Assembly (NCBI GenBank): GCA_045114665.1
Contig: JBGUKW010000318.1
Location: 1,868 to 65,867 of the forward strand
Length of the DNA: 64,000 nt
Reading direction: 5' to 3'
From: Candidatus Xenobia bacterium
Lineage (GTDB): Bacteria > Vulcanimicrobiota > CADAWZ01
Positions 36,427 through 36,678 of this stretch are shown here, one piece after another. The notes beneath the pieces are model-generated. The model did no database searches and had not been told where the DNA came from. It saw only the letters and a list, made by a program, of their open reading frames with translations. The stretch's first letter is position 1; each line of letters starts with the position of its first letter. A program made the translations under genes and the position numbers.

Positions 36427-36678
36427 ATTGACATACTCTCCATAAATAAATTTAGTGGATTCTGGGATATTAACGAACCTTGCCTCTATTTTAAATTAGA
36501 GGTCTTACGAGTTCTCTCCACAATGGTTGATGCCCCAACTATATTCTTTATTTATCATTATGTTTCTTGTTTTAATTTAAGTTTAGAGAACAGACGATTG
36601 CCTTCTCCATCTATCTTTATTCCTGCGTTTATATCACGATCATGATGAACACCACAAACAGGACAAGTCCATTCTAAT
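36427..36678 (-). mobile_element. IS200/IS605-family right-end remnant: TnpB C-terminal zinc-finger/RuvC-III coding fragment (...[19 protein letters not shown]...) plus RE with subterminal hairpins; copy 1 of 2
   Basis: About 250 bp, roughly 90% identical to 56056..56305. Encodes the CPVCG...DRDINAG TnpB C-terminal motif; a stop two codons upstream of that motif truncates it. Hairpins CCTCTATTTTAAATTAGAGG and TCCATAAAT/ATTTAGTGGA. Abuts the dnaB stop codon. Confidence 0.65.

Follow-up and report, generated by a model that had tools for sequence, protein, structure and literature searches.

In IS608 of Helicobacter pylori, a member of the IS605 group, TTAC lies 19 nt 5' of the left-end (LE) hairpin, TCAA lies 10 nt 3' of the right-end (RE) hairpin, and the transposase TnpA requires the LE hairpin and the LE guide (PMC3201880). 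The omega RNA is made up of the 3' end of tnpB and the RE, and carries a conserved stem-loop within 10 nt of the 3' end of the scaffold; TnpB can process this RNA out of a longer mRNA (PMC10278001). Standalone omega RNAs without tnpA or tnpB can serve TnpB in trans (PMC10691335), and PATEs are ORF-less derivatives of IS200/IS605 elements (10.1101/2023.11.20.567912).

We analysed a 64-kb stretch of DNA (the window) with a repeat between dnaB and prmA. This repeat, copy A, is very probably (about 85%) a non-functional, immobile 3' stub of an IS608-like insertion sequence of the IS200/IS605 family. A second stub, copy B, lies elsewhere in the window. The autonomous parent element resembles IS608 in several respects: tnpA (Y1/HUH) is followed by tnpB, the subterminal hairpins of the two ends are alike, the element goes in 3' of TTAC and does not duplicate its target, TCAA lies 10 nt 3' of the foot of the RE hairpin, and GAAT stands 5' of that hairpin. 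It differs from IS608 in the distance from TTAC to the LE hairpin (17 nt rather than 19 nt) and in the LE guide, which is AATG in the parent element and AAAG in IS608. Of the whole element, just the final 14% is present in the window, and copy A sits at TTAG instead of TTAC.

The comparison extends to the RNA. Like the omega RNA (reRNA) of ISDra2 and other IS605 elements, the segment combines the tnpB 3' end with the RE and ends at the transposon boundary; homology also links the parent TnpB to that of ISDra2, and the multi-helix scaffold is backed by covariation. Unlike those RNAs, the predicted scaffold has no Rfam family, the window copies carry broken pairs, and no cognate nuclease is encoded nearby. 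The stubs share with standalone omega RNAs and PATEs the presence of omega-RNA-bearing transposon sequence without tnpA or tnpB. Those elements keep both ends, however, whereas the stubs have lost the left end and are immobile remnants that fall outside the PATEs. All features fit the IS200/IS605 family and TnpB omega-RNA biology, and no new kind of system is involved.

Copy A and its parent element

The features of the locus, with the evidence that places each of them, are as follows.

36428..36675, minus strand: copy A, 3' stub of an IS608-like element (blastn with the L030 IS, multi-copy alignment)
36558..36674, minus strand: last 38 codons and stop of tnpB (translation, Pfam, tblastn)
36428..36546, minus strand: omega-RNA scaffold core and right end, five helices (covariance model R1, alignment A3)
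36483..36502, minus strand: internal hairpin CCTCTAATTTAAAATAGAGG, helix 4 of the scaffold, CCTCTA..TAGAGG (stem covariation in relatives)
36439..36459, minus strand: subterminal right-end hairpin, TCCA..TGGA, with GAAT on its 5' side (copy comparison, covariance model)
36428..36431, minus strand: TCAA, right-end cleavage tetranucleotide, 10 nt 3' of the hairpin foot (homology limit among 17 copies)
36674..36677, minus strand: TTAG tetranucleotide directly 5' of the stub (conspecific empty site)
36360..36427, minus strand: native dnaB-prmA spacer and prmA leader with RBS, AAAGAGGAC (empty allele comparison)
36674..38023, minus strand: dnaB (C-terminus ...KRFN*, same in empty-site strains)
35514..36359, minus strand: prmA, true start ATG 36359 (starts of relatives)
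56056..56312, minus strand: copy B, second stub, IS 1542-1802, RE end at 56056 (window self-comparison, blastn with the L030 IS, covariance model)

Copy A corresponds to the right-hand terminal 248 bp of an IS200/IS605 element of 1802 bp (IS 1555-1802 in the numbering of the reference copy, L030). The two are 94.8% identical across these 248 bp by blastn, and alignments with four further loci (L001, L003, L004 and L006) concur. The right end stops at ...GAGTATGTCAA, with the terminus of the unit reading ...GGAGAGTATGTCAA and its final base at 36428. The 5' limit abuts the dnaB TAG (36674-36676); the AG at 36674-36675 is common to both and forms a 2-nt microhomology.

Of the zinc ribbon the tnpB fragment retains the second CxxC, and it also includes the HDRDxNA motif of RuvC-III. 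It has no start codon, and its translation is offset from the dnaB frame. The peptide matches Pfam PF07282 (the Cas12f1-like/TnpB zinc-ribbon domain) above the curated cutoff, with E=3.9e-6, and the 373-aa TnpB of locus L003 aligns with copy A by tblastn over residues 336-373 only, at 89% identity. Both hairpins lie in the ~130 nt that follow the tnpB stop. The subterminal hairpin is at once the TnpA-binding imperfect palindrome and the 3' stem-loop of the omega RNA, and it is also present in the LE of full-length copies. Two of its stem positions are mutated in copy A, which reads CCAC/GGAG in place of CCCC/GGGG. A compensatory change was considered here and rejected because the two changes hit adjacent pairs, not partners; a 4-bp stem is left only in a shifted register.

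The true start of prmA, fixed from relatives, is the ATG at 36359 (MDYTTIKIE), 68 nt downstream of the right end of copy A. A mechanically called prmA ORF begins at 36416, and its 19-codon upstream extension is spacer and an artefact. The RBS-like AAAGAGGAC motif is duplicated in the window version of the spacer.

These results bear out most of an earlier note on this DNA. It had placed an IS200/IS605 right-end remnant with two subterminal hairpins in the precise interval from the dnaB stop to the prmA leader, which the parent element and the empty sites described below corroborate; its minus-strand TnpB tail is found in the translation of 36558-36677, and its ~65 bp to the prmA start measures 68 nt. 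It had also reported no tnpA and no full tnpB, and searches of the 64-kb window (by tblastn for the two genes) returned no tnpA, full tnpB or LE hairpin. What stands between dnaB and prmA is thus a remnant of a family member and not a complete transposable element.

An IS605-like parent, which the note had proposed to look for beyond the two window loci, was found. The autonomous copy is 1802 bp long, comes from bovine rumen metagenomes (L030) and is ~95% identical to copy A. With a slash marking each element boundary, it is laid out as TTAC / 17 nt - CCCCTAAATTTATTTATGGGG hairpin - tnpA - tnpB - ... GAAT-CCCCTAAATTCATTTATGGGG-AGTATGTCAA /. A 134-aa tnpA (PF01797, Y1_Tnp) lies directly upstream of tnpB in this locus and in L034, two of the ten loci fetched with one TnpB relative. 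The parent TnpB (373 aa, L003), whose tail is the window peptide, matches PF01385 (E=4e-19) and PF07282 (E=8e-21) and is similar to the ISDra2 TnpB structures 8EXA/8H1J (E=2e-49). Full copies have no terminal inverted repeats; they carry subterminal imperfect-palindrome hairpins, CCCCTAAATT(T/C)ATTTATGGGG, at both ends and in the same orientation, of which the window copies have the RE only. In all eight independent cases the left flank has TTAC as its last four bases, 17 nt 5' of the LE hairpin; homology among 17 copies breaks sharply past TCAA. No target-site duplication is present at either window site. The Y1 TnpA of the parent would be expected to move the element as single-stranded DNA, inserting it 3' of TTAC and cutting after TCAA, and the 3' end of its tnpB plus the right end would encode the omega (guide) RNA of the TnpB nuclease.

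The commonest form of the element is a tnpA-less derivative of ~1.37 kb that lacks IS 94 to 523/532. The same internal deletion is present in L003, L031-L033, L035-L039, L041 and L057, so that a single non-autonomous deletion derivative has evidently proliferated. Three otherwise full-length tnpA-less copies (L040 28-1152, L041 305-1429 and L057 1219-2342) have a tnpB split by an internal stop or frameshift, showing that the family decays by point mutation as well as truncation. A 27-mer from the 250-bp unit picks out five loci, spread over the rumen MAGs RUG13580 and RUG13696; L003, with its full TnpB, is one of them, and three of the five are at contig ends, as expected of a repeat. TnpB relatives at 86-95% identity are numerous, every one on IS-sized contigs, and the nearest named TnpBs, from Megamonas, Selenomonas and Phascolarctobacterium, are ~60% identical. 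The exact RE pattern gave no match in viral contigs and two loci only in metagenome contigs. The parent element appears to be uncatalogued and to come from uncultured rumen bacteria.

The 48-aa members of the TnpB cluster, suspected tail stubs, proved to be unrelated kinase fragments, and P0267 (215 aa), a suspected 5'-truncated copy, is a full-length tnpA-less element with a frameshift. In L003, a 22-nt mini-remnant (3130-3151, plus strand) comprises the last half of the RE hairpin and AGTATGTCAA, ~650 bp from the full-length copy and in opposite orientation. L007 (1999-2109) has the same insertion locus as L003, with an identical right flank, and unrelated sequence replaces the left flank and the LE hairpin up to the point where homology begins, at IS base 38; either the LE side was rearranged or the metagenome contig is chimeric. 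L004 (1222-2226) carries an IS with a DDE transposase (PF01609/PF13612); directly next to it is a tnpB copy cut off at IS 1467, one IS being disrupted by another.

Empty sites and left junctions

Empty sites were recovered through DnaB variants in the same 90% cluster, which include conspecific strains that are 97-98% identical. With the slash again marking junctions, the empty allele at the copy A site (L054-L056, 98% identical across dnaB) reads ...TTAATTAG/ATAAAACAAACAAGGTCGGAGAAAAGAGAGAC/ATG, with a 32-nt spacer that begins ATAAAACA. The filled allele of the window reads ...TTAATTAG/AATGG...stub...GTCAA/T-ATAAAACACAATGAG..., and its spacer 3' of copy A opens (T)ATAAAACA, like that of the empty allele. 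Comparison of the two shows copy A flanked directly by the native TAG on one side and by the native spacer on the other, with zero host bases lost on the left. The right junction is canonical; one extra T there, between TCAA and ATAAAACA, is unexplained. The C-terminus of DnaB (...KRFN*) is unaltered by the insertion and identical in empty-site strains, and the gap between dnaB and prmA grows from 32 nt (empty) to 314 nt (filled). Four independent samples share the same filled junction, and their contigs end 28-52 nt inside the repeat. The coexistence of filled and empty alleles makes the insertion of copy A a within-species polymorphism.

In the sister species (L042-L048, 85% identical) a 12-nt spacer follows the same TAG, and farther relatives have spacers of 10-26 nt in the same operon. 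The dnaB-prmA spacer is fast-evolving, at 67-68 nt in the window, 32 nt in the conspecific strain and 12 nt in the sister species.

The presumed target of copy A, TTAG, contains the dnaB stop, is one mismatch from TTAC and is the sole non-TTAC target among the ten sites examined. The copy would have landed, in one sub-lineage, 3' of this near-cognate target formed by the last codon and the stop codon of dnaB, inside the rpsF-ssb-rpsR-rplI-dnaB-prmA-rsmE operon and co-oriented with it.

Copy B is 94% identical to copy A and on the same strand, and it has a different left junction. Its empty site, in L049 from the same conspecific scaffold, reads TTAC/TTTTCAATCC on the element's strand, with the canonical target exactly at the RE junction. 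L049 also holds 1164 nt of host sequence that are missing from the window, and window homology to L049 resumes at 56308, inside a TATCC/TA microhomology common with the IS. Together, these observations indicate a canonical insertion followed by a deletion through microhomology, which removed the LE side (IS bases 1-1541), the TTAC target and 1.16 kb of flanking host DNA. A fused 60-aa ORF at 56182-56364 (TTG start), which joins unrelated upstream sequence to the TnpB tail, is spurious.

The surroundings of copy B are variable. Of a 110-aa gene that L049 has intact (625-957), the window keeps a frameshifted piece of 121 nt at 55935-56055, and the IS had inserted at TTAC within that gene. Window 55867-56528 (compared with L049 1-2270 and L053 1898-2271), between a fliK-like gene and oadG, is a variable island. 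In L049 this island carries several small genes and 1168 nt with PDDEXK_9 (Rpn-like) ORF fragments, as at L003 16-678, all of which the window lacks. L049 also joins oadB to sequence found at window 15413-16672, and synteny thus differs among strains or assemblies.

The two stubs could be read as copies of a 250-bp non-autonomous mobile unit (MITE- or PATE-like) that transposed as such into both window sites. Two copies of near-equal length in 64 kb that have three derived substitutions in common would suit such a unit, as would the intact flanks of copy A relative to the empty allele and the breaking of assemblies at the repeat in several samples, which indicates many copies. The 5' ends of the stubs differ by 13 nt, however, and the left junction of copy B is a deletion, with 1.16 kb of host DNA and TTAC replaced via microhomology, and not the insertion of a unit. 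Every other complete copy recovered is either full-length or tnpA-less with an LE, and the stubs themselves lack the LE hairpin and LE guide that TnpA needs (PMC3201880). We regard a mobile unit as extremely improbable. The stubs are immobile, the left end needed by TnpA being gone.

How copy A lost its left side is less directly recorded. The 1554 missing bases would have been lost in a TnpA-linked event, either a 5'-truncated (one-ended) integration or an aberrant excision anchored at the LE. The left junction falls on the very base where TnpA cuts, a position at which a random deletion in ~1.5 kb would rarely end; we therefore favour, with modest confidence, a TnpA-linked truncation and consider a random later deletion less likely. 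The truncation points of copies A and B are only 13 nt apart (IS 1555 and IS 1542), which is unexplained and not predicted by purely random decay. Both lie just upstream of a small GGAC-TT-GTCC hairpin.

Copy A might even have been dead on arrival. TnpA would have cut 3' of TTAG and joined the RE, transfer of the LE would have failed, and the AG microhomology would have sealed the host end to an internal point of the single-stranded intermediate. This course of events is possible but doubtful. It is compatible with the intact left host flank of copy A and with the break points of truncated RE-bearing copies, all four of which fall in the last 340 nt of the element (IS 1467, 1542, 1555 and 1781). 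By analogy only, 5'-truncated LINE-1 insertions likewise have one canonical end, lose varying lengths of the other and show microhomology where they join the target, although their mechanism (reverse transcription) and host are entirely different.

Two other origins were considered and set aside. A retro-copied omega RNA transcript came into question because the 68 nt past the RE had seemed foreign, but they are native spacer that starts ATAAAACA; this reading is also contradicted by the fact that copies A and B share nothing past TCAA. TnpA cleavage at a pseudo-LE and pseudo-RE (AGAAT plus GGACTTGTCC) at the truncation point is unsupported, since the spacing and the cleavage tetranucleotides do not fit LE/RE geometry and neither TTAC nor TCAA occurs at the junctions.

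Omega-RNA scaffold and present state of the stubs

We aligned the last ~115 nt of 11 sequences (alignment A3). The alignment supports five helices with 31 conserved pairs, 20 of which show compensatory changes. Bases are paired in 91% of cells, compared with 40-54% in slid controls, and none of 500 shuffles reached the observed values. The stem of helix 4 covaries in the relatives (CCTA/TAGG, CGGT/ACCG, CCTC/GAGG), and TnpB relatives at 30-57% identity, from viral contigs, have the motif GAATC-hairpin-GAGTATGTCAA in common, with stems of differing sequence. This conservation of structure across TnpB relatives identifies the right-end ~115 nt as the omega-RNA scaffold region, as the earlier note had supposed. 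The anatomy agrees with that of described omega RNAs: the segment spans the tnpB 3' end and the RE, the scaffold stops where the RE does, with a stem-loop no more than ~10 nt from that end.

A covariance model built from the alignment (R1) scores copies A and B at 105 and 98.8 bits, with E=2e-21 for copy A, and the next best score in the 64 kb is 16.5. Rfam at gathering thresholds returned only a tRNA elsewhere in the whole window, and at E<=10 over 36300-36800 the best match had E>4 and no relevant family was found. Folded as a single sequence, the 253-nt unit shows no stability beyond that of shuffles (z = -0.11 for copy A and -1.70 for copy B); the structure is shown by covariation instead. 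In relatives (the tails of L015-L022) the tnpB ORF reads through the omega-RNA core (...VGASTLG...). In copy A (window 36521-36560) the tnpB ORF is cut short by three stop codons within a ~75-nt insertion, and the core still reads VGASTIVERTRKT in a dead frame.

To assess decay, we compared the two stubs with 15 close copies, most with intact tnpB, over a 113-nt core. Copies A and B have three derived substitutions in common and so derive from the same local subfamily. Four of the six private core substitutions break conserved pairs and none is compensatory, a small sample in which some changes may have been inherited from an unsampled parent. Those of copy A are G>A changes in helices 1 and 5, the one in helix 5 lying beside a C>A that is also found in the IS-disrupted L004 copy and in one other copy; copy B has a G>A and a C>G in adjacent pairs of helix 2. 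Copies with intact tnpB score 110-117 bits, above both stubs, and most of the fold is still there in the stubs. The pair-breaking substitutions argue for decay over a maintained non-coding RNA.

This record bears directly on the possibility that a stub serves as an orphan, standalone omega RNA gene. Its scaffold would be bound in trans by a TnpB encoded elsewhere, and the adjacent 16-20 nt (the prmA leader in copy A) would guide DNA cleavage or RNA-guided binding and repression. Trans-acting standalone omega RNAs are documented (PMC10691335), and TnpB can carve omega RNA from a longer mRNA (PMC10278001). The stubs keep the entire covariation-supported core with ~130 nt upstream and are nearly equal in extent, with 5' ends 13 nt apart, but in helices 1, 2 and 5 they have lost pairs to uncompensated private substitutions, and their covariance scores fall under those of intact copies. 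The essential operon upstream of copy A is co-oriented and could supply transcription, whereas copy B is antisense to both neighbouring genes, with no evident promoter. TnpB is absent from the window. The guide positions would be meaningless without a TAM-flanked matching target: the first 16 nt at that position in copy A have no other match with fewer than three mismatches in the window, the guide-position sequences of copies A and B have no other good match there, and at their own loci these sequences are preceded by TCAA and not by the TTAC TAM. Nor is the insertion needed, since it is polymorphic within the species and most sampled conspecific contigs have the empty 32-nt allele. We consider an orphan guide RNA very unlikely. 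An intact TnpA or TnpB could nevertheless lie elsewhere in the genome, of which the window covers 64 kb, and the scaffold of a stub could then be bound in trans.

A role in cis is highly unlikely. A terminator or insulator, a promoter or an mRNA-stability element that uncouples prmA-rsmE from dnaB would make sense of a gap of 10-32 nt enlarged to 314 nt inside a conserved operon, and the stub does contain several stable helices and a weak -10-like TAGAAT made at its junction. However, no terminator-like site (a G+C-rich stem plus T-run) occurs on either strand of 36250-36800, and the three promoter-like matches compare with 2.5 expected by chance, none of them inside the stub and reading toward prmA. 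The fold energy of the 253-nt unit at copy A is no better than that of shuffles, and the presence of copy B in an unrelated intergenic context indicates that the sequence was not selected for the dnaB-prmA locus. Two suggestions of the earlier note find no support here: a terminator or insulator between dnaB and prmA, for which no terminator-like site is predicted, and a retained structured non-coding RNA, for which there is no Rfam match and against which most of the private substitutions, as breakers of conserved pairs, argue.

The stub is most likely co-transcribed passively in the dnaB-prmA-rsmE mRNA, where it would merely lengthen the spacer. We infer such read-through from the orientation of the stub, the conservation of the operon and the absence of a terminator.

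Significance for annotation and for the element family

The best reading of copy A is an ordinary kind of genomic debris, an inert, strain-polymorphic remnant. For annotation, the 250 bp are to be labelled as an IS200/IS605 remnant, and two apparent coding stretches, the 60-aa ORF at copy B and the 19 extra N-terminal codons of prmA, are artefactual. The repeat also accounts for the short-read assemblies of this species that break right after dnaB.

With filled and empty alleles within one species, the locus is a clean natural example whose history is unusually well reconstructable. As its target an IS608-like element took a near-cognate TTAG at the stop codon of an essential gene, and insertion in the ribosomal-protein/dnaB operon is tolerated only as a 250-bp stub. 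The contrast between the left junctions, exact in copy A but accompanied by the loss of 1.16 kb of host DNA in copy B, could inform the origin of LE-less stubs that bear an omega RNA. If copy A was dead on arrival, the break points near IS 1542/1555 would mark a preferred stop. If truncated integration is a regular by-product of peel-and-paste transposition, genomes would be seeded, in the manner of 5'-truncated LINEs, with LE-less, immobile omega-RNA modules.
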